From: Candidatus Omnitrophota bacterium
GTDB lineage: Bacteria; Omnitrophota; Gorgyraeia; Gorgyraeales; Gorgyraeaceae
Assembly: GCA_018902915.1 (NCBI GenBank)
Contig: JAHIPS010000106.1
Coordinates: 5,504 to 69,503 of the forward strand
Reading direction: 5' to 3'
DNA: 64,000 nt
Shown here: positions 32,512-48,063 of the stretch, piece by piece
Layout: each line of letters begins with the position of its first letter
How positions within the stretch are numbered: the stretch's first letter is position 1
Made by a program: the position numbers and the translations under genes
The notes under the pieces: model-generated
The model's database searches: none
The model's input: the letters and a program-made list of their open reading frames with translations, nothing else
What the model was told of the DNA's origin: nothing

Positions 32512-33498
32512 CTATATGTTGAAACGGATGTTGATGATGTCCCCGTCTCTTACGATATACTCCTTGCCCTCAACCTTTAATACACCTCTCTCGCGCGCCT
32601 TATGCATGGAGCCGCACTTTATGAAATCCCCGTAATTCACGACCTCTGCCCTTATAAAGCCCCGCTTCATGTCAGAATGTATTTTACCTGCTGCCTCGAT
32701 TGCTGGCAAGCCGGATTTTAGATACCAGCCTTTTGTCTCTTTATCGCCTGTTGTAAAAAATGTGATGAGGTCCAGCTTTTTTGATATCAATTTCGACAGC
32801 TCTTCCCTCAAATCATGCCCGATCCCCATCTCCTTCAAAAATTTATTTCTCTCTTGAGGTTCTAATTCCAGCACCTCTGATTCTATTTTTCCACAAAAGT
32901 AAATATGTTGTATACCTAAAGACTTGGCATATTCTTCGAGAGGCCCTGTCTTATTCGAATTATCTGAAATATTTATCGCCAATATCAAGGGTTTCAAGCT
33001 TAAAAATACCATGCCGGAAAGAAACCTTATCTCGTCCTCGTCAAGTCCGGCTTTATACAAAACCTTCCCTTCTGAAAGCGTATTCTGATACCTTTCTAAT
33101 ATCTTCGACTCTCTTTCCTTGTCAGGCCTTGATTCCTTTTTTAGCCTTTCGATCCTGTTCTGTACGACCTCAAGATCTGTAACAATAATATCAGTTATAA
33201 GTTTCTCAAAATCCTTTTTGGGATCCTGACTAAAAACCGCGCCTATCACGCATATAAATAGATCTATATCCTGTAATTTCGAAAGGTCTTTTTTTGCAAA
33301 AGAAGATAGAGCGCCCAGATCTATAAAAGTAGTCTCCGGATAAGTCCTTTTCTTTGAAGAAAAAATCTCAAAAATCCCGTCAACGCGAGGATCCGCGGAT
33401 TTAAACACGCCTATGTCGCCTGATACGCCTGCCTGCAACAATACCTTTAATAGAGTGCTCTTTCCGCTCTGTGAAGGGCCAATTATACCGATCTTCAT
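32512..33498 (-). CDS. YchF/OLA1-like GTPase-family protein with a C-terminal TGS domain (divergent).
   Basis: P-loop GIIGPSQSGKSTLLKVL. The C-terminus AAGKIHSDMKRGFIRAEVVNYGDFI...EGKEYIVRDGDIINIRFNI closely parallels the E. coli YchF TGS tail. It is shorter than canonical YchF. Confidence 0.55.
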   Translation of the reverse strand: MKIGIIGPSQSGKSTLLKVLLQAGVSGDIGVFKSADPRVDGIFEIFSSKKRTYPETTFIDLGALSSFAKKDLSKLQDIDLFICVIGAVFSQDPKKDFEKLITDIIVTDLEVVQNRIERLKKESRPDKERESKILERYQNTLSEGKVLYKAGLDEDEIRFLSGMVFLSLKPLILAINISDNSNKTGPLEEYAKSLGIQHIYFCGKIESEVLELEPQERNKFLKEMGIGHDLREELSKLISKKLDLITFFTTGDKETKGWYLKSGLPAIEAAGKIHSDMKRGFIRAEVVNYGDFIKCGSMHKARERGVLKVEGKEYIVRDGDIINIRFNI

Positions 33499-34064
33499 GA
33501 TGTCTTAAGGTGGGATACTACTTCGAACTCCTCGCTTTCCTTGCCTTTTTTATCCTCTAATTTTATCCTTATCTTCACTGCCTTTGGCAGCACTGAATCT
33601 GAATCCCAGGTGTCGCTCCAGTCCACGCCATCGTAATACGAAAATCCTAGCTCGGAGATGTTGTCGGCCAGGATATCGCTCTGGTCCTGTGTTGAAAAAT
33701 CATAGTCAGGCTCAATATCCTCGTTGCGTAAGAGAAACTTCCGCTCTTTATCCAACCAGTATTCTATCTCTGCCGCCTCGAATACGCCTGACGAGCTTGA
33801 AACAAAAGAGACAAACTTGACTTCGTCTTTTTCTCCGATAAATCTGCAAAGCCCGTCCTCCCTTATCACTGCCTGAGAAAGCTCCATGCTTATCTTTCCT
33901 ATTGCAGCTCTAGCATTGTGGTAGCGCTCGCTTCTCGCCTCGCCTTTCTGCCAGGATTTAGAGGAACTACTGAATATCGTAAAGGTAGAGGCCACGATCA
34001 TGGCCAGTATAGCCAGGGATATAAGCATCTCTACCAGAGTAAACCCTGTTCTATCGCGTAACAT
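33495..34064 (-). CDS. Type II secretion / type IV pilus-like minor pseudopilin (GspJ-like).
   Basis: Prepilin-type N-terminus GFTLVEMLISLAILAMIV (methylation motif); about 190 aa. Confidence 0.65.
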   Translation of the reverse strand: MLRDRTGFTLVEMLISLAILAMIVASTFTIFSSSSKSWQKGEARSERYHNARAAIGKISMELSQAVIREDGLCRFIGEKDEVKFVSFVSSSSGVFEAAEIEYWLDKERKFLLRNEDIEPDYDFSTQDQSDILADNISELGFSYYDGVDWSDTWDSDSVLPKAVKIRIKLEDKKGKESEEFEVVSHLKTS

Positions 34065-34435: not shown

Positions 34436-35512
34436 TTACTCTATAAGTCTGGCAAGTGAAAATAGCGGCATGAACATCGAGACGACAATAAAACCCACGA
34501 CCAAACCCATCGCCACTATAAGTATAGGCTCCAGCAAAGACGTGAGCCCGCTTATTGCCACATCCACTTCTTCCTCAAAATTATCAGCGATCTGTATGAG
34601 CATCTTGTCAAGCTGGCCTGTCTCCTCGCCGATATTTATCATTTTTACGACAAGCATCGGAAAGGCCCTGCTCGCCTCCATTGGCTTGGACACGCTCTCG
34701 CCTTCTTTTATGCTATCGCGAATATGCAGGACCGCGCGGCCGACAAACTCGTTGCCCACTGTATCCTTGACCGTATCCAGCGCGCTCAATATCGGCACGC
34801 CGCTCGAAAGCAGTGTACCCAGCGTCCTGGAAAACCTGGCTACGCTGATCTGCTGCACGAGCAACCCCACCACAGGTATATGCAGCTTCACCCTATCGAT
34901 CACGTAACGCCTGTTAGCGCTTTTTATAAGAAACTTATAGAATGCCGCGAGCGCGATCGGCAAGAGCGGAATAAGATACCATGCATTTCTTACTATATCG
35001 CTTGTCGCAATAAGAAGCTTTGTGGGAAGCGGAAGCGCCTCGCCTAATTCTGAAAACATATTCGTAAATGTTGGGATCACGAATATCATGAGCATGATGA
35101 GTATCAAGACCGCCACCATCATGACAAACGCAGGATACATCAGGGCAGACTTTACCCTCTCTCTCAATTTTTGACTCTTGTCCAAAAATTCAGAGAGCCT
35201 CCTGAGTATGCCGTCAAGCATACCGCCGAGTTCGCCTGCCTTTATCATATTGATATAAAATTCGGGGAAGACCTTTGGAAAACGCGAAAGCGCTTCTGAA
35301 AATTTCGTGCCGCTCTCTACTTCATTGGCCAGATTTTGTATGACGTCTTTTAGCGCGCCTGACTCTAATTGATCACAGAGAGTCCTGAGCGCCTTTACAA
35401 GAGGCAGGCCTGCCGCAATAAGCGTGGAAAGCTGTCTCGTGAATACGACGAGGGACTTCGTGGTGACCCTTTTTTTGAAAATAAGACTTGCTAGGTGTTT
35501 GAAAAAATCCAT
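34436..35512 (-). CDS. gspF: Type II secretion system F-family inner-membrane platform protein (GspF/PilC).
   Basis: Two repeated T2SSF domains, each with three TM helices. Motif FSRTLGTLLSSGVPILSAL. Confidence 0.8.
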   Translation of the reverse strand: MDFFKHLASLIFKKRVTTKSLVVFTRQLSTLIAAGLPLVKALRTLCDQLESGALKDVIQNLANEVESGTKFSEALSRFPKVFPEFYINMIKAGELGGMLDGILRRLSEFLDKSQKLRERVKSALMYPAFVMMVAVLILIMLMIFVIPTFTNMFSELGEALPLPTKLLIATSDIVRNAWYLIPLLPIALAAFYKFLIKSANRRYVIDRVKLHIPVVGLLVQQISVARFSRTLGTLLSSGVPILSALDTVKDTVGNEFVGRAVLHIRDSIKEGESVSKPMEASRAFPMLVVKMINIGEETGQLDKMLIQIADNFEEEVDVAISGLTSLLEPILIVAMGLVVGFIVVSMFMPLFSLARLIE

Positions 35513-35515
35513 CGG

Positions 35516-36718
35516 TCATCGCTTTATAGCTACGTCATTTGTCTCTATATAAAAACCTTCTTCAGCGTCGATTATATCAGCGGCAGCAATCCTTTCCCTG
35601 GCCTGTATTACCTCTATAGAGCCTACTAATGTCTCTCCTCTATAGACCTTAAAACTATCCATTATGCCAACGCCGTCCTGTTTGCCCACATCTATGACAA
35701 CAAAATTATGGTCCCTGTTTACAGTAACAACTCTTCCCCTCAACCCGCCTTCCAATGTCGATTCCTTTGCGATGCGCTCAAGGGACGGAGTGGTAAGCCT
35801 GGCGCTCGCCCCATAGTCATCGCTTTGCAAAACAATCGGCGGTAGCTCCACCTCTCCTGGCGCGTGATAGGCCTCGGCCCTGTACTCTCCGTCTCTCTTT
35901 CTATCCTCAAAGGCGGTCTTCCATTTGCCTATTTCGCTATCTTTGTATCTTAACTCATTTTCCAAACCTGCGATCTTAAGCCGCAGGTCCTCGCGCTCGG
36001 CAAACAACCTGTTAAATTCAGCTGAGACATCTCCCAATTCTTCTATCCTCGCCTTTAAAACACGGTTTTCTATCTTGGCGCCATCGACATCCTTTTTATT
36101 TATCGCGATCTTATCCTTTTCTCTCAACAGGTCCCTTGTCAAGACCTCTGCGACATCTGTAGAATCCTTGAGCTTCTGCGCCAGGAAATCATTCTCGTCC
36201 TTGAGCCTTGAGAGGTTGATATCTAAATCCATATTTTCTGTTTTTAATCTATTTATTTCCAGATCCTTTGGCGTATCTGAATCCTTTAATCTAGCCAGCT
36301 CTACCTCGAGCGAGGCCTTTTCTTTTAAAAGCCTCGTGACAAACATGTCTGATTCTACATCCTTCAGCTGTTTCTCCAGGAAGAATTTGCCTTTTTTGAC
36401 CCTGGCAAGTTCCCTATCCAGATCATCCCTCTCGCCTAAAAGCGCCTCGTATCTGGACCTCAAGTCTTTGCTCCTGGTCTCCAATGTAGACAATTCCCTC
36501 CCGACCACTTCCAGTTTTGATTTTAATTCTGTATTTTCCTTGTTTACGGAGGCAATTTCCCTGTTTAGACCGTCGACGGTAGTCTTGAATAAATTCTCCA
36601 AGCTCAGATAGTCAGTGTAAAGCCGCTCTTTTGCTACAAAAAACCATCCTGTACTGAAACTACTTAACACCACCAACCCTACTAGTATCCACAATATAGA
36701 CCTGAGGGTCTTATCCAT
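35516..36718 (-). CDS. Membrane-anchored long coiled-coil protein with a C-terminal beta domain (unknown function).
   Basis: N-terminal TM helix; about 250 aa of heptad-like E/K/L/R-rich sequence. C-terminal GRVVTVNRDHNFVVIDVGKQDGVGIMDSFKVYRGETLVGSIEV resembles an SAF/PilZ-like beta module. Confidence 0.5.
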   Translation of the reverse strand: MDKTLRSILWILVGLVVLSSFSTGWFFVAKERLYTDYLSLENLFKTTVDGLNREIASVNKENTELKSKLEVVGRELSTLETRSKDLRSRYEALLGERDDLDRELARVKKGKFFLEKQLKDVESDMFVTRLLKEKASLEVELARLKDSDTPKDLEINRLKTENMDLDINLSRLKDENDFLAQKLKDSTDVAEVLTRDLLREKDKIAINKKDVDGAKIENRVLKARIEELGDVSAEFNRLFAEREDLRLKIAGLENELRYKDSEIGKWKTAFEDRKRDGEYRAEAYHAPGEVELPPIVLQSDDYGASARLTTPSLERIAKESTLEGGLRGRVVTVNRDHNFVVIDVGKQDGVGIMDSFKVYRGETLVGSIEVIQARERIAAADIIDAEEGFYIETNDVAIKR

Positions 36719-36737: not shown

Positions 36738-39700
36738 TTAATTTATTATACCATAGATCCTGTTGCGCACAACTATAAATAATTCCTTTGGCTTTAAAAT
36801 CAGCGCTTTCAGATCCTCGAAAATAAGATAAAGGCTCGGCACTAAGAACAAAGTCAGTATTGTCGAGGACGCCATACCGCCTATAACAGTGATCGCGAGC
36901 GGCGACCAGAGATTCGATGATTCGCTCCTGTCAAACGCCATTGGCATAAGCCCGAGAATAGTCGTGGATGTCGTCATAGCGATCGGCCTGAGCCTGTCCT
37001 CGCCCGCCTCTATCAATGATTTCAATAAATTCGTTGATTTTTGCCGCCGCAAAAAGTTTATCCTGTCAACCAAAACGATCGCGTTATTTACAACAATGCC
37101 CGCGAGCATGATAGCGCCTATTATCACGCCGCGGCTTATAGGCTTGTGTGTGATCTTTAATGCAATGATTATCCCTATGACTGCCAGGGGAACCGATATC
37201 ATTATAATAAACGGCTGGGTGTATGATTCAAAAAGAGACGCGAGCACGAGGTAAACTAAAAATATGGTTATCCACAATACACCTGTTGGAAATGCCCATA
37301 GTTCCCTTTCGTTCTCTAAATTCCTTTCGTAATTACCTCCGATCCTGTAGTAATAGTCTCTTGGAAATTCCATATCTGAAAGATTGGCTCTGATTCTCTT
37401 TACTGCCGCTATAAGGGAGTATTTCGTAACCATAGCTGTTATGTGCACGACCCTCATCTTGTTCTTTCTTACTATCTCGCTAGAGCCGATCTGCGGCGTA
37501 AAATTCGCAACCTGTTCCAATAATATAGGATAGCCGTCTTCTGAAAAAAGCACGAGTTTTCTTAAATCATCCAGGCGCTCCCTGTCTTCTTTTCTCAAAC
37601 GCGACACAGTCTCTATCTCTCTTGCCTCTGTATGATATAATGTCGCGCGCAAACCCCTGATCTCGGAATGCAGGGTTTCCGATATATCCTTTGTGGTCAA
37701 GCCATACATGCCGGCTCTTTCCTTATCGACGGTAATACCCCATTCAGGCCTGCCGCTGATCCTGGACATCCTTATGTCTTCAAAGCCTTCTATTGTCCCG
37801 AGCCTTGTCGCGATTGAAACAGCCAGTTCCTTTAATATAGCGTAATCATATCCATAAAGATCCAGCACGATCTCCTTTAAACCCTTTTCCTCTATCTCTG
37901 AAAAGTATATAAACCCTCCTTTATACTTTTGCTCGACAGTCTTGGCCTGTGCGCGTATATCATCTATGATAACCTTGGTGGAGCGCTCTCTCTGAGCAAG
38001 CGCCACGAGCTTGACATACGCCTTGCTGGACCACGGCTCAACGCGCGAGGTAAATGTCTTTATCTCTGGTATCTTGGAAAGCAAAAGTTCTATCTCTTTT
38101 ACCATCTGGTCTGTTACATCCAGCTTTGCGCCCGGCTCCAGTTCTATAAATATAGTAAACCTTCCTTCCTCTGTGCCTGCCATGAATTCTCTATCGATCT
38201 TTGACCCCATTAATAGCGCAAGCACCAGTATCCCAAACGCCGCCACCACGAATAGATACCTTAACTTTAATCCAGTCCCAAGAAATCTCCTGTAATATGC
38301 CTGTATATTTAAAAATATATTCTTTTGGAATAATTTCTTTTTTGGTCTTGGCGCAGCCGGTATCTTTTTCATGCGGTCTGTGAGCATGGGGACAAGCGTC
38401 AACGCGACAAAAAGCGAAGAGAGAAGCGAATACGTTACAGTCAGCGAAAGTCCGCTCCACAACATACGCGTGGCCTTGTTTACAAAAACAAAAGGTAAAA
38501 ACACTATTATCGTGGTTATGGTGGACGCGACTATCGCAAGTCCCATTTCTGAAGCGCCGCTCACAGCCGCCTGCGTGTATTTTTCTCTCCATCCTGCTGT
38601 CCAAGGCGAAGCCTCGGACAAACCTGTCCGAGGCTTCGCCTTGAACAGGATGGCTTTTTTCTTTTTATCAATATTATCGAGCACGACGATAGAATTATCT
38701 ACGAGCATACCTATGCCCAGCGCAAGCCCGCTCAGCGTCATTACATTTATCGATATCTTATTAAAAAACATCAATATGAACGTGGCCATGACTGATATCG
38801 GGATCGTGGCAGCGATTATAGATGTGGGCCCGGCATCGCGCAAAAACAAAATCAGTATCATGACAGCCAGGATCGCACCATAGATAAGAGAAGTCTTCAC
38901 AGCGTTTATTGCCTCCTGTATTGTCTCTGCCTGGTTCAACGTGGCCTTTATAAATATCCTTTTATCCAGCTTTCTCTTCAAGCGCCTGAGTTCCTTTTGC
39001 ACGTTGGAGACAACCTTTATGGTATTGGCCGTGGATTCCTTTTGTATGTAGAGGGAAACAACTGGCTCGATATCTGTCCTCGCGTAACTAACTGGCTCTA
39101 AAAATGAATCCCTTATCCTCGCGACTTCTTTAAGCTTTATAACAGAACCCTGCGGCGTGGTAGAGACTCCGATATCTTCTATATCCTGAAGCGATTCAAA
39201 CTCGCCCATTATCCTTACAAGATATTTATTCTTCCGTCGCTCAATATCGCCTGCAAGTAGATTTAAATTATTCGCGCCCAGGGAATTTACAACATGCTCC
39301 ATTGGTATGTGATACTTGTAAAGTTTATTCTGGTCCACCTCGACCAGTATCTTGCGCTCCCTGCCGCCGTACACGTCCACATTCGCTACGCCGTTCACGC
39401 GAAGTATGTACTCCTTCATCTCCTCGTCAACTACCTTGCGCAGCATCTCAGGGGTATAGCCCTCTCCTGTTACTGCTAATAGAAGCACTGGCGTGTCAGA
39501 TTCTTTATACTGCGCTATTATTGGCTTTTCTATCTCGCGCGGGAGCTTGTCCCGGATTTTTGAAAACTTTTCTCTTACCTCGAGCGCGGCAAAATTCATA
39601 TTCGTGCCTGGCTCAAACTCGAGCCATATCCTGGACTCGCCTGCCTTTGACGTGGAATAAAGATTCTCTAAATAATTGACACTAGATACTACCTCTTCGA

Positions 39701-39902
39701 TAGGCCGCGTGACAAGCGTCTCTACCTCCTGCGGTGGCATACCTCCTCTTACAGCAACGATTATGCTTATATCACCATACACGACATTGGGCTTGAGCTC
39801 GACTGGCAGGCGCTGCAACGACACAAACCCCACCAGCACTACTCCGATGAATAGCATGAATATCGTTATCGGACGTTTGACTGAAAATTCAGACAAATTC
39901 AT
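36738..39902 (-). CDS. RND efflux permease (AcrB/HAE1 family), second of a tandem pair.
   Basis: 1054 aa with a 12-TM RND topology, large periplasmic loops and the typical N-terminus MNLSEFSVKRPITIFMLFIGVVLVG. Confidence 0.9.
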   Translation of the reverse strand: MNLSEFSVKRPITIFMLFIGVVLVGFVSLQRLPVELKPNVVYGDISIIVAVRGGMPPQEVETLVTRPIEEVVSSVNYLENLYSTSKAGESRIWLEFEPGTNMNFAALEVREKFSKIRDKLPREIEKPIIAQYKESDTPVLLLAVTGEGYTPEMLRKVVDEEMKEYILRVNGVANVDVYGGRERKILVEVDQNKLYKYHIPMEHVVNSLGANNLNLLAGDIERRKNKYLVRIMGEFESLQDIEDIGVSTTPQGSVIKLKEVARIRDSFLEPVSYARTDIEPVVSLYIQKESTANTIKVVSNVQKELRRLKRKLDKRIFIKATLNQAETIQEAINAVKTSLIYGAILAVMILILFLRDAGPTSIIAATIPISVMATFILMFFNKISINVMTLSGLALGIGMLVDNSIVVLDNIDKKKKAILFKAKPRTGLSEASPWTAGWREKYTQAAVSGASEMGLAIVASTITTIIVFLPFVFVNKATRMLWSGLSLTVTYSLLSSLFVALTLVPMLTDRMKKIPAAPRPKKKLFQKNIFLNIQAYYRRFLGTGLKLRYLFVVAAFGILVLALLMGSKIDREFMAGTEEGRFTIFIELEPGAKLDVTDQMVKEIELLLSKIPEIKTFTSRVEPWSSKAYVKLVALAQRERSTKVIIDDIRAQAKTVEQKYKGGFIYFSEIEEKGLKEIVLDLYGYDYAILKELAVSIATRLGTIEGFEDIRMSRISGRPEWGITVDKERAGMYGLTTKDISETLHSEIRGLRATLYHTEAREIETVSRLRKEDRERLDDLRKLVLFSEDGYPILLEQVANFTPQIGSSEIVRKNKMRVVHITAMVTKYSLIAAVKRIRANLSDMEFPRDYYYRIGGNYERNLENERELWAFPTGVLWITIFLVYLVLASLFESYTQPFIIMISVPLAVIGIIIALKITHKPISRGVIIGAIMLAGIVVNNAIVLVDRINFLRRQKSTNLLKSLIEAGEDRLRPIAMTTSTTILGLMPMAFDRSESSNLWSPLAITVIGGMASSTILTLFLVPSLYLIFEDLKALILKPKELFIVVRNRIYGIIN

Positions 39903-40066
39903 AATATTCTAGTATTCTAGAGACGTCTACCAACTCAATCGGGAACCTGCCCTTTTTCCAAGAAGGAAGCTGTCTTTTACATCTACATCTTTAAAGACAC
40001 GTTCCCGAACAAACTCAAGACAGCTTCCCGAACAGATTGGTAGACGTCTCTCCTTGTTACTCCTTG
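39903..40066 (-). other. Structured intergenic element between the two RND genes: 15-bp perfect inverted repeats flank about 105 bp that contain nested inverted and direct repeats (MITE-like or RNA structure).
   Basis: AGAGACGTCTACCAA at 39919-39933 matches TTGGTAGACGTCTCT at 40037-40051; each arm contains the palindrome AGACGTCT. Inner stems are GGGAAC (39941-46) with GTTCCC (40001-06), and GGAAGCTGTCTT (39965-76) with AAGACAGCTTCC (40017-28). Direct repeats: TATTCTAG x2 at 39905-39918 (39905-12, 39911-18, overlapping by 2 nt) and TTCCCGAACA x2 (40002-11, 40025-34). Confidence 0.7.
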
Positions 40067-43000
40067 TTATTCCTTTAATTCGTACCAGCGGCCTGGGCCG
40101 AGCGGGCCGTGGGCAGTCAAAAATCCTTTATCCAGCATCTCCTTTAAGTCCCTGGCCGCTGTTGGCACAGATACCTTAAAAAGCTCTGCGTATTCCTTGC
40201 GCGTAATCTTACCTGTCTTCTTTAAATGTTCCAATAATTGCTCCTGGCGACTGTTTAGTTTTGACACCACTGGCTTTTCAGGCACAGCAGGCGGCTCTGG
40301 CTCTGGCGGCGGCACTAACTTAATAACCTTTTTCTCTTTGACCTGTGGTTTTAAGATAGGTTCGACCTTTGGCGCAGTTGACACTGGTTTAATTACAGGC
40401 GCAACTTTTGCCCTTTCGCTGATAATCCCTGCAACAATCGTATAAACGCATGGAATAACAAAAAGCGTGAGCAAGGTTGAAACAACAAGTCCGCCCATAA
40501 CTGTTATTGCCATCGGACTCTGCAGGGCTGAACCTTCTGACAACCCCAGCGCCAATGGAAAAAGGCCCAGCACAGTAGTCATCGTGGTCATAAATATAGG
40601 CCTGAGCCTGGTTTTTCCTGATTCAATAACAGCTTCTACGAGCTCCACGCCTCTGGAGCGCATTCTATTTATAGAATCGATCAGTATGATGCCGTTATTT
40701 ACGACAATACCGCCGAGTATTATTACACCGAGCATGACCACGACACTTATAGGAGTATTTGTCAAAAACAATGCCAGAAACACGCCCATTAAAGAAAGCG
40801 GCACTGTAAACATGATGACAAAAGGCTGCCATAACGACTCAAACTGCGCAGCCATTATCATGTAGACCAGAAGTATTGATAGAAGAAGCGCGAATCTCAA
40901 AGAGTCAAAAGACTCTGCCATCTGCTGGCTCTCGCCTGATAGCGCTATATCGATATCTTTTTCCGCGTCACTCATATTCCTGGCGTTACCTATTATATTT
41001 TGCTCAACCCCCCTTATCATCGCTTCTACATCCATTATGACCTTGTTCAATGCCCTGTCTTTAATATTCGCTGTCACCAAAACCACTCTCTGCTGATCGA
41101 GCCTCCTTATCTCGGTCGGCCCTAACCCTTGCGCAATGTAAGCGACCTCGGAGAGCGGCACCTCTATATCAAGCGGCGAGTGAATAAGAATATTCCTGAT
41201 CTGCGAGAGTCGCGAGCGCCCCTCTTTTCTCAACCTGACCCTTATATCTATCTCCCTTCCTTCTTCCTTAAACCTGGTAGCCACCACTCCTTTTATAGCA
41301 GTATGAGCTGCCTGCGAAATCACGCCGCTCGAAAGATTATAAAGCGCTGCCTTGTCCTTGATGACATTCACCTTTGTTTCAGGCGAAGGCTGACTAAGAC
41401 TTGTCCGTATGCCGTAAATGCCCTTTATCTCGGAAAGCCTGTCTTTAATGTTTTTAGAAATGTCCTCTATCTTTTTCAGGTCCTTTCCTTTTATCTCAAG
41501 CACTATAGGGGCTGACCCCTGCATGGCAGTCTTAAAAACACTTTCCTGCAATATAAACTCTATGTTCGCGCCCTCTAAATTCATCCTGTCCAGCTTGACC
41601 TTTAGTCTCCCTACTACGCTGGAAGTCGAAGGCCATTTTCTTCCTTTTTTTAGACTCACTATGATCTGCGATTGATGCGAACTCATTGTCTCGAGCCCCT
41701 GGGCATAATCCTTTTTTTTGCTCGAACCTATGCTTACAGCTGCGCCCTCGACCTCTTTCATTTCAAAAAGCGCCTTCTCTATCTTTTCGACAACGCTGTT
41801 CGTGACATCCAGCTTTGTGCCGCTCTGCATGGTGACCTTCATAATAAATTCGCGCTGGTCTATCTTGGGCATAAATTCCTTGTCTATCAGGAAAAAAAGA
41901 CCCAGGCTCATAACAAAAATAACGAGCACGACTATCAGAAACGGCCATCTTAATTTCAATACCTTCGGGATTATCGCGGAATAAAGCGGACCTAATCCAA
42001 AAACAGAACTGGCGCTGGGGTTAGTTTGTGTTTTTTTCGTATGGCGCGTCCTTATCGCGGTCAGGCGCGGGATCAATGAAAGCGCTACTATAAGCGATGC
42101 CAAGAGCGAAAAAGTCACAGTAAAAGCCAGCTCCTTAAATAGCTGGCCTGCCACGCCGACCACAAATACCATTGGCAAAAATACCGCCACTGTGGTAAGC
42201 GTTGAAGAAAATATCGAGGCCGCGACCTCGCTCGCGCCGGCCTTACTGGCCTCTTTTATATCAATTTTTTTCTGCAGCTGATTGTAGATATTTTCAATGA
42301 CCACTATGGCATTATCCACGAGCATTCCTATGCCAAGGGCCAGACCTCCCAGCGAAAGCATGTTGAGAGTTATACCGTTGAAATACATCAAGCTGAACGC
42401 AACCATAATGGATATAGGCATGGAGCCCGCGACTATTAAAGACGCCTTTACATTCCTCAAAAAGACAAAAAGCACCAGGAACGCCAAAACTCCTCCCTGG
42501 ATCGCCGCGTCCATAACCCCGCGTATGGACTGTTTTATAAATATAGACTGGTCATAGATTATATTCGCGTCCATGCCGCCGGGCAGATCCCTTTTTATAA
42601 TATCCAGTCTCTCTCTTACCTTTTGCGCGATGCGTATAGTATTGGTGCCTGCCTGCTTCTGCACTGATATCGAGATGTTTTCCTTGCCATTATAACGGGA
42701 TATGCTCGTCCGCTCCTGAAAGGTGTCCTTTATCTGGGCAATATCCTTCAGATATATAAGGCGCGATTCTTTTGGGGTCGCTTGTCGCTGTTGTAAATTC
42801 GACGGCGTCTCTTCCTCTATCTTATCCTTTCCCACCACCGTCTCTCTTATCTCAGGCACTACCTTGAATTCGCCCATTGTCCTTATGAGATATTCATAAA
42901 AATGTTCTTCTATCGTGCCGGCAGGATAATTTAGATTGGAGGATTTTAATGCGTCAACGATCTTTGTTATGGAAATCTTGGAAGCGGCCAGCCTTCCTTC

Positions 43001-43564
43001 ATCCACTGCGACGAGTATCTCCCTTTCCAGGCCGCCGCTGACATTACAGGAAGCTACGCCTTCCACCTTTTCAAGCTCGTCCTTTATGAATTTTCTTGAA
43101 AGCCTTAAAAGCTCGGCAGGTGTTTTATTGCCTGTGATGCTAAGCGTAAGAACAGGGAGCTCGAAAGGATTAAATTTCATTACTATGGGGTCGGCGGACC
43201 CGAGGGGCAGCCTCTCCTTTATAAGGTCTATTTTCTCGCGCACGCCCAGCGACGCGAAATCCATATTGGCGCCCCAGCCGAATTCAGCAGTGACTATAGA
43301 AACGCCTTCCTTTGATATAGAGCTTATGCGCTTGAGGTTAGAGACTGTGCCGACCGCTTCTTCTACTATCTTTGTGATAAGCGTTTCTACTTCTTCAGGC
43401 GCGGCGTTTTCATAGGTTGTAACTATTGTGAGCTGCGGGTAGGTAATGGAGGGAAACAGTTCTTGCGGCAGGCGCGTCAGGGATATGAGGCCCAGCATCA
43501 ATATCCCTATAAAGAACATGGATGTTGTAACGGGCCGGTTTACTGAAAATTCCGGAAGTCTCAT
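40067..43564 (-). CDS. RND efflux permease (first of the tandem pair) with a C-terminal cytoplasmic Pro-rich linker and winged-helix DNA-binding-like domain.
   Basis: RND core from MRLPEFSVNRPVTTSMFFIG to about aa 1030. Then VKEKKVIKLVPPPEPEPPAVPEKP, then NSRQEQLLEHLKKTGKITRKEYAELFKVSVPTAARDLKEMLDKGFLTAHGPLGPGRWYELKE. The last segment matches the Fic/AlbA-associated wHTH pattern (ITxKEYxELxxVSxxTAxRDLxxLxxKGxL...GRxxxYxL). Confidence 0.85.
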   Translation of the reverse strand: MRLPEFSVNRPVTTSMFFIGILMLGLISLTRLPQELFPSITYPQLTIVTTYENAAPEEVETLITKIVEEAVGTVSNLKRISSISKEGVSIVTAEFGWGANMDFASLGVREKIDLIKERLPLGSADPIVMKFNPFELPVLTLSITGNKTPAELLRLSRKFIKDELEKVEGVASCNVSGGLEREILVAVDEGRLAASKISITKIVDALKSSNLNYPAGTIEEHFYEYLIRTMGEFKVVPEIRETVVGKDKIEEETPSNLQQRQATPKESRLIYLKDIAQIKDTFQERTSISRYNGKENISISVQKQAGTNTIRIAQKVRERLDIIKRDLPGGMDANIIYDQSIFIKQSIRGVMDAAIQGGVLAFLVLFVFLRNVKASLIVAGSMPISIMVAFSLMYFNGITLNMLSLGGLALGIGMLVDNAIVVIENIYNQLQKKIDIKEASKAGASEVAASIFSSTLTTVAVFLPMVFVVGVAGQLFKELAFTVTFSLLASLIVALSLIPRLTAIRTRHTKKTQTNPSASSVFGLGPLYSAIIPKVLKLRWPFLIVVLVIFVMSLGLFFLIDKEFMPKIDQREFIMKVTMQSGTKLDVTNSVVEKIEKALFEMKEVEGAAVSIGSSKKKDYAQGLETMSSHQSQIIVSLKKGRKWPSTSSVVGRLKVKLDRMNLEGANIEFILQESVFKTAMQGSAPIVLEIKGKDLKKIEDISKNIKDRLSEIKGIYGIRTSLSQPSPETKVNVIKDKAALYNLSSGVISQAAHTAIKGVVATRFKEEGREIDIRVRLRKEGRSRLSQIRNILIHSPLDIEVPLSEVAYIAQGLGPTEIRRLDQQRVVLVTANIKDRALNKVIMDVEAMIRGVEQNIIGNARNMSDAEKDIDIALSGESQQMAESFDSLRFALLLSILLVYMIMAAQFESLWQPFVIMFTVPLSLMGVFLALFLTNTPISVVVMLGVIILGGIVVNNGIILIDSINRMRSRGVELVEAVIESGKTRLRPIFMTTMTTVLGLFPLALGLSEGSALQSPMAITVMGGLVVSTLLTLFVIPCVYTIVAGIISERAKVAPVIKPVSTAPKVEPILKPQVKEKKVIKLVPPPEPEPPAVPEKPVVSKLNSRQEQLLEHLKKTGKITRKEYAELFKVSVPTAARDLKEMLDKGFLTAHGPLGPGRWYELKE

Positions 43565-44784
43565 TCTTCTTCCTCGACACCACTCTCCTGTATCTCTATG
43601 ACATCGACGGGCAAACCGTCTTTGAGTTCCTGCGGCGTGTCTGTAACTACTATCTCACCTTCATAAAGACCGGAGGCAATCACAGTGTAATCAGTGGTAA
43701 CATAGGCAACCTCTACAGGCCTTGCGTGAACAGTATTGTTATCATCGATACTAAAAACAGTGTACTCGCCCTCTTCTTTATTCAAACTCATGCTCGGCAC
43801 GACTATCGCGTCCTCAAATTCAGCGACAGTAATCATGGCCCTTGCAAACATGCCAGGTAAAAGCATCGCGTTTTCATTCGCTATCCTCACTCTTACAGTA
43901 AGCGTCCTGGACTTGCCCTCGATTATCGGGAAGACATTGTTCACCGTGCCTGCAAACTTCATACCTGGATACGCATCCACTGTAACTTTAACAGCCTGGC
44001 CAAGCGCGATCTTATCGATATCTTTTTCTACAATACCCAATTCTACAAAGACATCCATGATATCGTATAGAGTAGCGACCTTGCCATTAGGCGTGACAAA
44101 TTCGCCCACCTCAGCATCCCTTGAACCCAGGACCCCATCGCGCGGGGCATAGAGATGTGTTTTATCGAGTTCCGCCTTTGCTGATTCAAGCTCAACCATA
44201 GCTGATTCAACCTGCAGTTCCGCGCCCCTGGCCTCCAGCTCCACCTCTTCTAATTTTGCCTTTATAATACCGCCTATCTCGTAAAGATTTTTGTGTATCT
44301 CGAGCTTTTTCTGCGCAGCAAGAGACTGTACCTTTGCAGACTCTAACTTGCTTTTAGAATAATCTACTTTTAGCTGCGCGTCCTTCTGGTTAAGCGCAGC
44401 TATTAAGTCTTTTTTATAAATAATATCGCCTTCTCTGAAATTCATGGATTCTATCGTGCCGTTTATCTCAAATTTAAGTTCTATCTCTAACGCGCCTTTT
44501 ACAGTGCCCATTACAGGTAGATCATCTTTGAAATCCATTAAACTTATCCTGTACGCGCGCACAGACACTGCTTCATTTCCCTGACCAGGGCCAGCTTCAC
44601 CAAACTCCGGCATACCTTCCATGCCCATGTCTCTTGCTGCCTGTCCTTTGTCTCTTGAAAGAAATCCTGGCAATTTCATCTTCCCAATCGGCATCTTCTT
44701 GGAAAGCGTAATGCCCCAGACTACAGCAAACCCCACTACCCACAACAGTATAAACCCTACCAATAATTTCTTTGATTTTTTCAT
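43561..44784 (-). CDS. RND efflux periplasmic adaptor (membrane fusion protein, HlyD family).
   Basis: N-terminal TM anchor, coiled-coil hairpin (AKVQSLAAQKKLEIHKNLYE...ELESAKAELDK), and beta-barrel/MP domains. Its 3' end overlaps the RND gene by 4 nt. Confidence 0.85.
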   Translation of the reverse strand: MKKSKKLLVGFILLWVVGFAVVWGITLSKKMPIGKMKLPGFLSRDKGQAARDMGMEGMPEFGEAGPGQGNEAVSVRAYRISLMDFKDDLPVMGTVKGALEIELKFEINGTIESMNFREGDIIYKKDLIAALNQKDAQLKVDYSKSKLESAKVQSLAAQKKLEIHKNLYEIGGIIKAKLEEVELEARGAELQVESAMVELESAKAELDKTHLYAPRDGVLGSRDAEVGEFVTPNGKVATLYDIMDVFVELGIVEKDIDKIALGQAVKVTVDAYPGMKFAGTVNNVFPIIEGKSRTLTVRVRIANENAMLLPGMFARAMITVAEFEDAIVVPSMSLNKEEGEYTVFSIDDNNTVHARPVEVAYVTTDYTVIASGLYEGEIVVTDTPQELKDGLPVDVIEIQESGVEEEE

Positions 44785-44807: not shown

Positions 44808-44844
44808 ATGTTCAAGGCCGATGTTCAAGGCTTAGCCTTGAACA
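44808..44844. repeat. Palindromic repeat locus: a half copy at 44808-44819 plus a full 23-bp copy at 44822-44844.
   Basis: Same element as at 8781. It supplies MFKAKP plus the TGA stop of the OMF gene (stop at 44827..44825). Confidence 0.85.
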
Positions 44845-46660
44845 TCGGTCTTGCGTTGGCGATTCTGAAGGTGTCGTTGTCTAAAAACAAGGTGTAGCCC
44901 GAGGCCTTGTTCAGCCTGGCCAGGGATTGATACAGGCTCCCCAGCGCCTCTATATAATATGACTTTTCATCAGTAAGTTCCATGTGCGCCTTTAATAATT
45001 CTGATGACGGTATCTCGTTTAACCCTGCGCGGGCCTTTGCGATCTTTAGCTCCTCTTCCTTGTGTCTTATCTTGTTAAAATTGGTCTTTGCCTGGATAAG
45101 GCCTTTTTTGTAATTCAGGTATGATTCTTTGACCTCTTTAAAAATAGCGTCTTTGGCGGCATCCAATTCCTGCATGGCCTTTTTCAATGCTATTGAAGCT
45201 GACTTCTTTTCAGAAAAACTCTGGAGATTATCAAGTATCCCTAATTCCAGGGATTTACTAACTGATTCTGTCCTGGAGCTCTGCCCATGCTTTTGGCTTG
45301 TCTCTTCTTTCGTATAAGAAGCTGCCAGCGTGTTCCCTCCCAGGGGCTTTGACACCTTTAACCCGACATACCAGTCTTTATCCATGTTTAAAGGCTCGAA
45401 TTCATATGCGCCGCCTGATTTACCATATGTGCCTGTAAGGTCTACCTTGAACTGGTCTTTGGACAGGGCGATCTTGCGCTCGTAGTCATTAAAATCCAGC
45501 ATGTGCTCTTTTATCTTTAGATCAGGCCTGTTCCTGTAAGCCAGCTCCACGCAATCCTCCAGTGAAATATCTATGTCCACTGGCATCAGCATATCCAGAG
45601 ATTCCAGGTCTGTATCGACATCCACCAGCCCCTCTATGTCCTTCACATTCATGGCCTGCGTCAGGACCAGTTTCGCGATCTCCATATCGTTCTCGCTGGA
45701 TAGGACCTGATAACTGATCTGCTTCATCTGGGACTCCACCTGCAAAAATTCAGCCTTTGTGCTCAACTCAAGGTCAAACCTCTTCTTCGCGCCCTCAAAG
45801 ACCCCTTTCACGTCTTTCAAAAGGGCCTCCTGCAATTTAACGTTTGCCTTTGTAGCCAGATACGAATAAAACGCTATTTCAACCTCCATCCTCAAATCCT
45901 GCTGGACCTTATCATAGTTATAAGTAGACGCCTTCATATTCGAGATCGCCTGTTCCACCGCATATTTCAAGCGCCAGCCATAATACAGCGGGTACTCGAA
46001 CTTCATCTTATACTCTTTGTCCGTAAAATCCTGGGTATAGGCAGTGGTCTTGCCTGTGGTCTCCATTATATTAAGGCTTGCCGCTGGATAAAGCCCCCTG
46101 CGCGCCTCTCTTATCTTGAGCCTTGAAAGGCTTATTTCCTCTTCCGCAATCCTTGACGCCATATCATTCTCCATCGCGATATCCACTGCATCATCTATGC
46201 CCACCCCAACAAAAAACTCAGGCTGGGGCATGTCCTCTTTAACGGATTTAGCTCCGCTTTCGGGAAACCATGGCTTAGTCTTTTCAAATATAATCGGGAC
46301 ATCTATCCAGCGATCTTCATCCCCTAATTCCTCAGGAAACGGCTGATACCTGTCATACACCCATACTGCCTTTAAGCAGATGTTGTCCAGCTCTTTACTT
46401 CCTGAAGATTCAGAGACTTTAGCGTCTTTTAATTCCCCCCATGGAGAAAGAAAAAGACTTAACCTCAGCTCGCCTCTTGAACCTGACAGCATAGAATCCA
46501 CAGGTCTTTCTATAGAGCCATATATATCATTTGATAGATTAATTATATACTGGGATATTACTTCTTCTTTAGGCAGATTCGAAAGTGATACGGTAGGGTT
46601 TGCTGCTGTAACTGCAGCAACTACAAAAAGATATAATAACATGATACGCTTGATACGCAT
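44825..46660 (-). CDS. Outer-membrane efflux protein (TolC/OMF family) with an extra N-terminal TonB_C-like domain.
   Basis: aa about 150-611 is the OMF two-repeat coiled-coil/beta architecture. aa about 30-130 (GELRLSLFLSPWGELKDAKVSESSGSKELDNICLKAVWVYDRYQPFPEELGDEDRWIDVPIIF) matches the TonB/TolA C-terminal fold pattern (G.v.v.f.v...G.v..v.v..SsG...LD.aal.Av....f.P........v.vPi.F). Confidence 0.75.
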   Translation of the reverse strand: MRIKRIMLLYLFVVAAVTAANPTVSLSNLPKEEVISQYIINLSNDIYGSIERPVDSMLSGSRGELRLSLFLSPWGELKDAKVSESSGSKELDNICLKAVWVYDRYQPFPEELGDEDRWIDVPIIFEKTKPWFPESGAKSVKEDMPQPEFFVGVGIDDAVDIAMENDMASRIAEEEISLSRLKIREARRGLYPAASLNIMETTGKTTAYTQDFTDKEYKMKFEYPLYYGWRLKYAVEQAISNMKASTYNYDKVQQDLRMEVEIAFYSYLATKANVKLQEALLKDVKGVFEGAKKRFDLELSTKAEFLQVESQMKQISYQVLSSENDMEIAKLVLTQAMNVKDIEGLVDVDTDLESLDMLMPVDIDISLEDCVELAYRNRPDLKIKEHMLDFNDYERKIALSKDQFKVDLTGTYGKSGGAYEFEPLNMDKDWYVGLKVSKPLGGNTLAASYTKEETSQKHGQSSRTESVSKSLELGILDNLQSFSEKKSASIALKKAMQELDAAKDAIFKEVKESYLNYKKGLIQAKTNFNKIRHKEEELKIAKARAGLNEIPSSELLKAHMELTDEKSYYIEALGSLYQSLARLNKASGYTLFLDNDTFRIANARPMFKAKP

Positions 46661-46680
46661 TTTTTCTCCTTGTAAGCGAG

Positions 46681-46740
46681 AAGTATATCATATTATTATT
46701 ATTTTGTCAATAGTAGGACCCGTGATACGGTCTTGATACG
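46681..46740 (-). promoter_or_regulatory. Sigma70-like promoter for the efflux operon plus an array of CCGTATCA direct repeats (candidate operator).
   Basis: Minus strand: TTGACA (46709..46704), 17-bp spacer, TATACT (46686..46681), AAGGAG RBS. CCGTATCA x2 with 11-bp periodicity lies at 46740..46722 upstream of the -35. Two more GCGTATCA copies overlap the start codon (46658..46642). Confidence 0.5.
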
Positions 46741-46741
46741 G

Positions 46742-47980
46742 TTACGCCTTTATAAATACGTCCTTTATAACCACGCTTGCAGCGCCTAAAGCAGCAGAGT
46801 CTTTACCAAGATGCGCGGGTATTATCTTTACCGCATTAGCAGGCTCCTCAAATGCCCATTTCCTGACTGTCCTTCTCAATGGCTCCAGGAATAAACTGCC
46901 TGATTTCTCGATCCCGCCGCCTATTATAACTATCTCTGGGTTAAAAAGGTTTATTAGATACGCGACCCTCACGCCCATGTTAACAGCCGCGTCCTCTAAA
47001 AGCTCTATGGCAAGCGTGTCTCCGGATTTTGCCGATTCTATTATACCTTCAACTGTTATCTTATTGAGATCTTTTGCTGAAGACCCTGCTATGTTTGACT
47101 TAACGCTTTCTTCTTTTATAAGTTTCTTTGCCTGGCTTACCAATCCCAGGTCCAGTCCCAGTGGCAGTAAAAACGAAAGGTTTTTTGAAAGCCTTAGATA
47201 CTCTCCATTTCGCGGATAATTAATGCGGATCTCGCCTGCTGAGCCGCTCGCCCCGCAATAGATGCCGCCTTTTATTATAATACCACTACCTACGTCAGAA
47301 TACATATATACAACATCCTCTATGTCCATAGGGAGCGCGTACATCTTTTCTCCGAATGCTGCAAACGTTGCGTCATTTCCTAAAAACGATGGCATTCCAA
47401 ATCTCTGCTCGATCAAACCCTTTATGGATATATAACTCGTGCGTATCCCGTCCTTGGAGGAATCCCTCACTGTGCCAAGATTATCATCTATAACGCCTCC
47501 TACAGCTATACCGACACCCTTGACCCTATCCTTGCTAACGCCCTTTTTATTCATTAATTCTTCTATAAGGTCCAGGGATTTGTCGATGATCCTGTCCATA
47601 GAGTCTTTTTCTCTTGGCTTTTCAATCCTGGCGATTATCCTTCCTGAAAGGTCTGTAACTAATCCCACCATGGTAGCGCCCTGCGCGCCTGTGTGGCCAA
47701 GGTCAAGCCCCATAGCATGGCCATGGTCCTCCCTTAATTTTACAAGGGTCGGTTTTCTACCGCCAGAAGAGGCCTCCATGCCGCCTTCAGCAACCAGGCC
47801 CTCATTTATATAGGTATTTATATAATTAGAGACTGTCACTATATTAAGGTCTGTTATTTTTGAAATATCAGCCCTGGTAATAGGTCCGTTCCTGCGGACC
47901 AATTCCAGTATAGAAAAATTCTTTTTCTCGTGGTCTGACAATGAATGCGACTCAAAAAACCTGTTCTTCTTGATTGCCAT
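46742..47980 (-). CDS. ROK-family transcriptional regulator (NagC/XylR-like: N-terminal wHTH + sugar-kinase-like domain).
   Basis: HTH ILELVRRNGPITRADISKITDLNIVTVSNYI; ROK core GLDLGHTG...GIAVGGVID...C-x-C-G region. ATG 47980 has a GGAGGTAGAT RBS; the track start at 48040 has none. Confidence 0.8.
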   Translation of the reverse strand: MAIKKNRFFESHSLSDHEKKNFSILELVRRNGPITRADISKITDLNIVTVSNYINTYINEGLVAEGGMEASSGGRKPTLVKLREDHGHAMGLDLGHTGAQGATMVGLVTDLSGRIIARIEKPREKDSMDRIIDKSLDLIEELMNKKGVSKDRVKGVGIAVGGVIDDNLGTVRDSSKDGIRTSYISIKGLIEQRFGMPSFLGNDATFAAFGEKMYALPMDIEDVVYMYSDVGSGIIIKGGIYCGASGSAGEIRINYPRNGEYLRLSKNLSFLLPLGLDLGLVSQAKKLIKEESVKSNIAGSSAKDLNKITVEGIIESAKSGDTLAIELLEDAAVNMGVRVAYLINLFNPEIVIIGGGIEKSGSLFLEPLRRTVRKWAFEEPANAVKIIPAHLGKDSAALGAASVVIKDVFIKA

Positions 47981-48063
47981 ATCTACCTCCCTGTTTTTCG
48001 CTCCCCTTATTTGACAAATCCGACACGTACGTTTTGTCAAATAAGGCTCGCGCGACTAAATTC

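Follow-up and report, generated by a model that had tools for sequence, protein, structure and literature searches.

A predicted winged helix-turn-helix domain fused to an RND efflux permease across Omnitrophota, and a candidate operator at the promoter of its outer-membrane partner

Efflux pumps of the resistance-nodulation-division (RND) family are normally under the control of separate soluble repressors (TetR, MarR and others) or of two-component systems, and to our knowledge no RND permease has a DNA-binding domain. Here we analyze a gene of this family in a 64,000-nt stretch of DNA from a Candidatus Omnitrophota bacterium (contig JAHIPS010000106.1, positions 5,504 to 69,503; hereafter the window). 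Omnitrophota are uncultivated and reportedly mostly very small cells. The product of the gene, here called RND1-HTH, continues beyond its last transmembrane (TM) helix into a predicted winged helix-turn-helix (wHTH) domain, and an array of short DNA boxes, a candidate operator, lies at the promoter of the outer-membrane factor (OMF) gene that heads the operon. Our search of the full-text literature found no paper on an RND-HTH fusion or on the regulation of efflux in Omnitrophota. Membrane one-component regulators and RND pumps are each well known; what is new here is a DeoR/Fic-type wHTH on the C-terminus of a transporter, together with a candidate operator.

Among described systems, the ToxR-like regulators (CadC, ToxR/TcpP and transmembrane regulators of Vibrio) also combine a cytoplasmic wHTH, an unstructured linker and a membrane part in one chain. 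Their targets are often genes for membrane proteins, and they bind promoters while anchored (PMC7888679, PMC6320335, PMC11856585). They differ in having an N-terminal wHTH of the OmpR/PhoB type, a single TM helix and a periplasmic sensor, whereas RND1-HTH has a C-terminal module of the DeoR/Fic type on a 12-TM transporter. In RND1-HTH, moreover, the transporter itself would be the regulated product, and a sensor other than the pump is not evident.

On the pump side, the heteromeric HAE1 pumps MdtBC and MuxBC share with our locus two adjacent genes for paralogous permeases, an adaptor and an OMF in one operon. MdtB differs in carrying VDD in TM4, where RND1 has VDN, and both MdtB and MdtC lack a cytoplasmic domain. 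The mycobacterial RND proteins MmpL3 and MmpL11, which belong to another family, do have a long disordered cytoplasmic C-terminal tail with a non-transport role. These tails lack a DNA-binding fold, and roles in localisation and protein interactions have been ascribed to them.

The module itself has relatives in two groups of proteins. Its nearest relatives are the C-terminal wHTHs of Fic and AlbA_2 proteins, with an alignment over all 66 residues that takes in the LNxRQ start, the S..T..R(D/E)L helix and the G.GR..Y wing. They too are C-terminal appendages on a larger catalytic body, but their hosts are soluble enzymes without a long disordered tether. The Omnitrophota modules are set apart from them as a tight subgroup with at least 50% identity and the wing GP(L)GPGRWY. 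DeoR regulators, several of which bind arrays of direct repeats, match the same HTH_DeoR profile. They have an N-terminal HTH and a DeoR_C domain for sugar-phosphate binding and oligomerisation, whereas RND1-HTH has its HTH at the C-terminus, gives no match to DeoR_C and scores only 14-20 bits against the DeoR-type NCBIfam equivalogs, whose cut-offs are 244-351 bits.

RND1-HTH is encoded on the minus strand by a single uninterrupted frame of 1165 codons plus stop (40067-43564). The Pfam family ACR_tran (PF00873) spans aa 5-1044 (E 3e-241; 803.5 bits where 28 suffice), aligning from position 3 to position 1020 of its 1021, which places the body in the RND family. Its closest solved relative is MdtB of Escherichia coli (9lyq_B, E 1.7e-95). 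In TM4, RND1 reads VDNAIVVIEN where MdtB reads VDDAIVVIEN; of the acidic proton-relay pair D407/D408 of AcrB, RND1 thus retains the first Asp and has Asn in place of the second. The curated NCBIfam cut-offs for RND proteins are not reached (NF033617, 634 against 1250 bits; NF000282, 506 against 1250), and the top equivalog-level matches, MdtB/MuxB and MdtC, score 374 against 1584 and 364 against 1774 bits. Judged by these scores, RND1 is a divergent RND permease outside the curated NCBIfam groups. The identical protein (P0027; 100%) is found on four public contigs of up to 95.5 kb (NCBI, ENA, Logan) under the name 'efflux RND transporter permease subunit [Candidatus Omnitrophica]', while at least one homologue is labelled 'DeoR family transcriptional regulator'.

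The tail beyond the permease body had been noticed in a first-pass annotation, which gave it as 40067-40460. The tail does lie there, but this interval begins inside TM12 and ends at the stop codon. An AlphaFold2 (AF2) model of the last 170 aa resolves three parts: the TM12 helix (aa 1018-1052), an unstructured stretch (aa 1053-1104) and a wHTH that begins at aa 1105. Both strings quoted in that annotation, VPPPEPEPPAVPEKP and KITRKEYAELFKVSVPTAARDLKEMLDKGFL...GRWYEL, are present in the tail. In the established AcrB-type topology the RND C-terminus is cytoplasmic. The predicted DNA-binding-type domain is thus covalently joined to the membrane part, in the same ORF after TM12, and by homology it lies on the cytoplasmic side. 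A tblastn search of the window for a second copy of the module found none.

That the tail is a wHTH, as the first-pass annotation had proposed, is borne out by profile and by structure. The Pfam family HTH_DeoR (PF08220) matches aa 1106-1150 with 31.0 bits in the whole protein, and with 34.9 bits when the last 130 aa are taken alone, against a gathering score of 21. In the 170-aa model the domain is confident over aa 1105-1163 (pLDDT ~90). Modelled alone, from a 73-sequence alignment, the module reaches pLDDT 86.9 and shows the wHTH topology H1-S1-H2-H3-S2-wing-S3 (helices 10-22, 27-33 and 38-50; strands 24-26, 54-57 and 65-68). Foldseek against the PDB returns at the top DNA-bound or DNA-binding wHTHs (AspA-DNA, ArsR/CadC, MarR), together with the Fic2 protein of Coxiella burnetii (CbFic2); the TM-scores to ArsR, MarR, AspA and CbFic2 are 0.7-0.8.

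Conservation is concentrated in this module. Across 73 distinct modules, 14 columns are invariant (R11, R27, S37, T40, A41, A42, R43, D44, G58, P59, G61, G63, R64 and Y66), and over the 62-aa core the net charge averages +6.4, with a pI of ~10. In 60 of 74 loci the module exceeds the pump body in conservation, and distant orthologues are 63% identical in the module compared with 52% in the body.

A profile of the module was searched against the PDB and, exhaustively, against 1.84 billion cluster representatives. In the PDB, the best sequence match is the C-terminal wHTH of CbFic2 (8cil, E 7e-4), of which chain A, aa 297-368, aligns to profile positions 2-67; CRP, eS25, Lrs14 and the MarR/SlyA helices come next. 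The large search retrieved 3220 proteins at E <=1e-3, including 171 at E <=1e-10. A tight group holds RND1 proteins, C-terminal fragments and a few non-RND oddities such as P0149. A looser group (~40% identity) holds SLFN_AlbA_2+HATPase_c_4 proteins, small stand-alone wHTHs, multi-wHTH arrays, and ~350-aa proteins with the module at a CbFic2-like C-terminal position; a Pfam scan of two of the latter found no Fic domain. In the AlbA_2 + HATPase_c_4 proteins P0241 (E 2.6e-12) and P0270 (E 2.5e-11) the module is likewise C-terminal. The kinship with Fic, AlbA_2 and Schlafen-like proteins that had been read from the sequence pattern therefore holds, and by its profile matches the module belongs to the C-terminal wHTHs of the Fic/AlbA_2 type. 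The oddity P0149 (185 aa) joins ~105 N-terminal residues, which by eye resemble a fragment of endonuclease III (HhH-GPD), to a wHTH of the Omnitrophota type; it may be a chimera made in assembly, or else the module has a rare second partner.

The fusion is not peculiar to this genome. Of the 120 closest homologues, which share 51-100% identity, 112 have the C-terminal pattern ...ITRKEY..F.IS.PTAARDLKEL.DKG.L.A.GPLGPGRWYEL. The remaining eight mostly break off inside the module or ahead of it, and a single one runs beyond the 30-residue test window. When 185,579 species, each represented by a single genome, were scanned for the module pattern, 106 loci were confirmed, of which 80 were kept. These come from Omnitrophota wherever they are meaningfully named, and the module is preceded by an RND1-type body in all of them whose upstream sequence is present. 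Body and module share one frame without a stop in 76 of 77 species-representative loci. A stop codon separates the two in locus L061, and in L081 RND1 is followed by a separate 114-aa linker+HTH gene and then by the second permease, RND2. Such regularity far exceeds chance, and since the frame is also intact in the public copies, the read-through that the first-pass annotation had asked to be checked is excluded, and its question about other RND proteins with the extension is answered by the same 112 homologues and 80 loci. Beyond what it had proposed, the fused gene is the first of a permease pair, and the RND1-wHTH fusion is, on this survey of genomes, a fixed, phylum-wide feature of Omnitrophota.

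The tether between TM12 and the wHTH behaves differently. In the 170-aa model it has no secondary structure (pLDDT 40-55). Its composition in homologues is 20% P, 15% E and 14% K with a net charge near 0, its sequence is hypervariable, and its length in relatives, counted between the RND profile match and the module, ranges from 25 to 323 aa (median 72). Some homologues, such as P0170, have a coiled coil in it. With the module conserved, the fusion fixed and the tether variable, we infer that selection acts on the domain and on its being tethered, and not on the tether sequence.

The candidate operator emerged from an alignment of OMF upstream regions, that of the window and those of three relatives. 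In its tandem form it reads CCGTATCA-N3-CCGTATCA; the window sequence around it (46718-46746) is TAACCGTATCAAGACCGTATCACG. This pair, unique in the window where 0.05 would be expected by chance, lies just upstream of the -35 element of a sigma-70-type promoter that is kept in L082-L085. Two GCGTATCA boxes follow at the OMF start codon and a fifth lies inside the OMF ORF (Table 1), so that five boxes fall within 46586-46741, all on the minus strand; none of 200 shuffles reaches five boxes per 250 nt. Exact copies number four in the whole window, and three of these lie within 156 nt. The region 46641-46740, which the first-pass annotation had named as one candidate target, contains four of the five boxes, and the boxes are kept at the OMF promoter phylum-wide.

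To compare loci, single CCGTATCA boxes with at most one mismatch were counted. The OMF upstream region is readable in 11 loci (the window, L082-L087, L208-L210 and L212), which represent three gene orders, A, B and C, and 51-100% identity in RND1. Around the OMF promoter and the first ~150 bp of the ORF, all 11 have 2-8 boxes, and 10 have at least three. Nowhere else in ~1 Mb from related loci, where the background is 0.67 boxes/kb, do four or more boxes fall within 250 nt. L082-L085 and L212 have the tandem pair in the same position, and in L085 it abuts the -35 element. One or two boxes likewise occur at +2/+11 in L082 and L085, and the intragenic box is again at +67 in these two loci and at +61 in L083. 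In L086, L087 and L208 the pair is inverted and lies between the OMF start codon and a TTGACA ~35-40 nt upstream, over or just downstream of the core promoter, while L209 and L210 have several copies in varied orientations. The order-B locus L212 has its boxes in two pairs upstream of the OMF gene, with four exact copies at the promoter. From 52 boxes we derived the 11-bp consensus (T/A)AACCGTATCAT. Conservation extends to the flanks beyond the search pattern (5' AA and 3' T), which shows that the motif is real. What is constant is the half-site, whereas number, spacing and orientation vary, often with a tandem period of 10-11 bp.

Some further observations concern the boxes. A Fur-box reading of the boxes that contain TGATA was dropped, as their period is 10-11 bp and not 6 and their sequence differs. 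A metagenome-wide scan for the tandem box CCRTATCANNNCCGTATCA matched at least 120 unrelated contigs, with the Omnitrophota operon in none among the matches listed, and was uninformative. Other clusters of AACCGTATCA boxes are found outside the OMF promoter in L065 (10859-10877, straddling the RND2 stop) and L068 (10779-10850, three boxes after lnt), with no obvious gene downstream; they may be relics or further members of a regulon. Upstream of the OMF gene in L212 (3040-3454), three TTAGGGACGGTTCTGAAG repeats and three complements form hairpins interleaved with CCGTATCA boxes, and this repeat shares AACCGT with the box.

Which protein might bind the boxes? In every box-bearing locus the tail is the sole DNA-binding domain detectable by Pfam, as read for most loci from precomputed domain lists, and a direct Pfam scan of the hypothetical genes beside the OMF promoter in three loci found no DNA-binding domain. 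The other regulator in the neighbourhood, a ROK protein, is adjacent in 6 of the 11 loci and ~9 kb distant in three, and L210 and L212 have none within 10 kb, which weakens its case as owner of the boxes. ROK proteins bind as fixed dimers and would be expected to use a palindrome, so the direct-repeat format is atypical for them; it resembles the 11-bp direct repeats of the Pho box, to which PhoB-type winged helices bind. The variable number, spacing and orientation of the half-site fits monomeric wHTHs on flexible tethers, not a fixed dimer.

Two further observations bear on the tail. In the HMM alignment, module position p corresponds to CRP residue p+142; the invariant R27, S37, T40 and R43 and the near-invariant K46 align with R169, S179, T182, R185 and K188 of CRP, which we take to be phosphate or base contacts in CAP-DNA structures. 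In addition, L211 has an RND gene without the tail, followed by a separate 316-aa protein (P0201) and then by the OMF and adaptor genes. P0201 combines a TM helix and a coiled coil of ~200 aa with a wHTH copy of greater divergence, and five boxes with a 10-11-bp period lie 2 kb downstream. This split arrangement, comparable to a Rosetta-stone case, suggests a link between the wHTH and the boxes. A homologue search with P0201 retrieved P0201 itself as the sole match. From co-occurrence and conservation, the tail is the leading candidate for the protein that binds the boxes.

Our model, to which we give even chances, is that the pump-tethered wHTH binds the boxes and feeds back on transcription. 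RND1 would act as the first of two paralogous permeases in a tripartite efflux pump, with the tail remaining attached. The wHTH of the tail would bind double-stranded DNA at the (T/A)AACCGTATCAT boxes in the OMF promoter and the first ~150 bp of the gene, each domain taking one box as a monomer, and an RND trimer would offer up to three tails and hence avidity on tandem boxes with a 10-11-bp period. In this way the promoter would stay at the membrane, beside the pumps that it encodes, and the abundance or assembly state of the pump would feed back on transcription; the sequences speak neither for nor against pump occupancy, the signal proposed in the first-pass annotation. There is precedent for such binding, as the membrane-integrated transcription factor CadC binds chromosomal sites while anchored (PMC7888679, PMC6320335), and transmembrane regulators of Vibrio likewise bind chromosomal targets in the anchored state (PMC11856585, PMC9977878). 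We consider repression the more likely sign of regulation, given that the boxes of several lineages touch or cover the -35/-10 elements or follow closely after the start.

A bolder version, which we put forward tentatively and at somewhat less than even chances, is that a secondary transporter serves as its own transcription factor across Omnitrophota: a covalent 'trigger transporter', in which tethered monomeric wHTHs become multivalent on the AACCGTATCAT array through the trimer. Expression would then be set by the pumps that are present, assembled or possibly engaged with substrate, and in at least one lineage the function would have been split off as a TM-coiled-coil-wHTH protein. If the tail does bind the array, the loop would be unusually direct, with a pump touching the promoter of its outer-membrane partner, and would offer a test bed for DNA search by membrane-anchored regulators, for transertion, in which genes of membrane proteins would be kept at the membrane during their expression, and for the stoichiometry of a three-component envelope machine. 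A direct test is possible, since both the ~60-aa module and the 11-bp candidate site are short and well delimited. Together they give Omnitrophota a molecular signature that spans the phylum, and a candidate marker of a regulon.

Several points weigh against this model. Where CRP has the base-contacting R180 and E181, the module carries V/I and P/A, and its A41 and A42 are alanine throughout. Although the module has the geometry of a DNA-binding wHTH, this leaves few side chains to read the bases of an 8-bp core, which within the protein itself speaks most strongly against high specificity. Neither the recognition helix nor the box varies appreciably, so there is no covariation to exploit. The assignment of the boxes to the tail is an association only, drawn from co-occurrence, and the box distribution comes from 11 promoter regions. 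In order B, RND1-HTH has a box-free promoter of its own with a different conserved leader, so any control there would fall on the OMF gene and not on RND1. The boxes could also belong to the ROK protein or to a regulator that is not linked to them. Moreover, wHTH folds also make protein-protein contacts, and the Foldseek matches of the module include ESCRT-II, eS25 and FeoC. Finally, the closest solved relative speaks on both sides. In favour of DNA binding, CbFic2 binds random double-stranded DNA at ~220 nM, which its authors credit to the HTH, and its HTH is needed for DNA-induced dimerisation (with no Z-DNA induction). However, deletion of the HTH left the measured affinity undiminished in assays with random DNA alone, and the authors suggest that the DNA binding may be non-specific (PMC10628234).

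The first alternative builds on some of these points: the tail would bind DNA without specificity, tethering the nucleoid to the pump or positioning the pump, and the CCGTATCA boxes would belong to another regulator. We regard this as unlikely, though a serious contender. The nearest solved relative, CbFic2, did bind random DNA (PMC10628234), the module is strongly basic, and its recognition helix combines two invariant alanines with few base-reading side chains; long tethers, some with a coiled coil, would be suited to reach the nucleoid, and the module is equally conserved in order B, where the RND1 promoter has no boxes. Nevertheless, the 14 invariant positions, among them the whole N-terminal half of helix 3 and the wing tip, exceed the usual need of backbone binding. 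An invariant box is present at every locus examined with no other DNA-binding protein constantly linked, and the separate wHTH of L211 is again found within an efflux locus.

A second alternative, which seems to us distinctly unlikely, is that the wHTH is a protein-binding module that recruits a partner, gates the pump by docking, or assembles pumps with each other or RND1 with RND2. The structural matches to ESCRT-II, ribosomal eS25 and FeoC, which binds the FeoB transporter, would agree with it, as would the requirement of the HTH for dimerisation of CbFic2 (PMC10628234) and the presence of the tail on one of the two permease paralogues alone. It is difficult to reconcile with the fact that the positions of the CRP DNA contacts are the invariant ones, with a module pI of ~10, and with sequence kin that are the DNA-associated wHTHs of DeoR, Fic and AlbA_2 proteins. 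A hypervariable tether of 25-323 aa also disfavours a fixed docking site, and the box clusters would be left without explanation.

Third, the tail could be a pro-form, in which the linker is cleaved, constitutively or upon a signal, and the freed soluble wHTH acts on the boxes. The linker is disordered and protease-accessible in the AF2 model, L081 (separate linker+HTH gene) and L061 (stop) are split versions, and proteolytic activation of the membrane regulator CadC is reported (PMC11484849). We consider this very unlikely, however: no conserved cleavage motif is visible in the linkers, splits are rare (1/77) and possibly errors or pseudogenes, and the separate wHTH protein of L211 has its own TM anchor, suggesting that membrane attachment matters. 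Last, that a sequencing or assembly error deleted a stop and fused a small regulator gene to the pump gene, for which the stop in L061 and the split in L081 would speak beside the a-priori possibility, has practically no chance, being already refuted by the continuous frame in the window, in 76 of 77 species-representative genomes and in 112 of 120 homologues.

Around RND1-HTH, the minus strand of the window reads: a tetratricopeptide repeat (TPR) protein, the ROK regulator, OMF, the periplasmic adaptor or membrane-fusion protein (MFP), RND1-HTH, a 164-nt hairpin, RND2, a coiled-coil protein (CC400), and genes resembling those of type II secretion systems and type IV pili (T2SS/T4P). The two permeases are adjacent paralogues in one operon, RND2 being ~35-37% identical to RND1, and the tail is found on RND1 alone. 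An RND2-type gene follows RND1-HTH wherever the sequence extends past the HTH (~75 of 80 loci), and in 18 loci the RND1 stop and the RND2 start overlap by 4 nt.

Table 1. Positions of the pump genes, the parts of the RND1-HTH tail and the promoter elements in the 64,000-nt window.
Feature	Position	Strand	Description and basis
RND1-HTH gene	40067..43564	-	1165 aa + stop; RND permease + C-terminal linker + wHTH; ORF list
Disordered Pro/Glu/Lys-rich tether, TM12 to wHTH	40253..40408	-	aa 1053-1104; AF2
Predicted wHTH domain, basic	40070..40252	-	aa 1105-1165; AF2, Pfam HTH_DeoR
Sigma-70-type operon promoter	46682..46710	-	TTGACA-17-TGnTATACT; 11/12 consensus matches, extended -10
Tandem CCGTATCA pair, 11-bp period, just upstream of -35	46723..46741	-	boxes 46734-46741, 46723-46730
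Two GCGTATCA boxes at OMF start codon	46642..46658	-	46651-46658, 46642-46649; box scan
Fifth box, exact CCGTATCA, +67 inside OMF ORF	46586..46593	-	exact match
OMF, first gene of the operon	44825..46660	-	Pfam OEP + TonB_C aa 56-126
MFP (periplasmic adaptor)	43561..44784	-	Pfam HlyD_D23 + HlyD_3; syntenic in related loci
RND2, tail-less second RND permease	36738..39902	-	Pfam ACR_tran
CC400, membrane-anchored coiled-coil protein	35516..36718	-	Pfam: coiled-coil-type matches alone
ROK regulator	46742-48040	-	

The gene order of the window, order A, is shared by L082-L085, and L209 is similar without the coiled-coil gene. Order C keeps the core OMF-MFP-RND1HTH-RND2-coiled-coil, so that in both orders the operon starts with the OMF gene; the ROK gene is ~9 kb downstream beside sugar genes in L086, L087 and L208, and none was found within 10 kb in L210. 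In order B, complete in L212, the OMF gene is followed by a c-di-GMP riboswitch-like sequence and a 1353-aa gene, and then, behind a separate promoter and leader, by RND1HTH-RND2-MFP. The large ORF upstream of RND1 in order B was considered as a divergent OMF and rejected; in L212, the 10-kb flank has the OMF gene 6.5 kb upstream.

Several of the partner proteins are of interest in themselves. The N-terminal fusion of TonB_C to the TolC-like OMF recurs in L082-L085, L211 and L212, with AMIN in its place in L209; this architecture is unusual for an efflux OMF. CC400, which follows RND2 in orders A and C, is a 400-aa protein that starts with a TM helix, continues as a long coiled coil and ends in a small beta-rich domain, an overall build that is also that of P0201 in L211, and it is probably a further component of the pump system. 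Directly downstream of the pump lie genes of the T2SS/T4P type, for a T2SSF platform protein (34436-35512) and a pseudopilin (N_methyl + T2SSJ; 33495-34064), and this adjacency is kept in L082, L083 and L085.

The 164-nt spacer between RND1 and RND2 (39903-40066) forms a near-perfect hairpin of ~130 nt (-66.9 kcal/mol, z -7.2), which the first-pass annotation had also offered as a target of the tail. This suggestion did not survive comparison: RND1 and RND2 overlap or nearly abut in most loci, and the hairpins of orthologous spacers share no sequence. Where such spacers are present they contain other very stable hairpins, made up of short tandem repeats with their complements (for example L011, L013, L021, L058, L069). 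They look like a general intergenic element of Omnitrophota (a terminator, an RNA stabiliser or a small mobile repeat) and not like a part of the pump.

In order B, the leader between the sigma-70-like promoter and RND1-HTH consists of AAGGGATAGGGRCTGGCA, an A/U-rich spacer of 8-25 nt, AGGGGGTAA, a hairpin, and CCCC with a U-tract. It is present in L030 (1560-1666), L032, L034, L036, L039, L045, L047, L048, L055, L064, L074 and L212 (9900-10000). As it is absent from orders A and C, it is unlikely to be the site of the tail. An Rfam search with it returned no family at the gathering score or at E up to 1, and we regard it as a candidate unannotated attenuator or riboswitch of the efflux pump. 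A riboswitch of the c-di-GMP-I type is found at the Rfam gathering score in L039 (128-253), and riboswitch-like sequences were recognised by eye in L212 (5500-5620, before the 1353-aa gene between OMF and RND1) and in L211 (~6290-6400), the latter just downstream of the five-box array.

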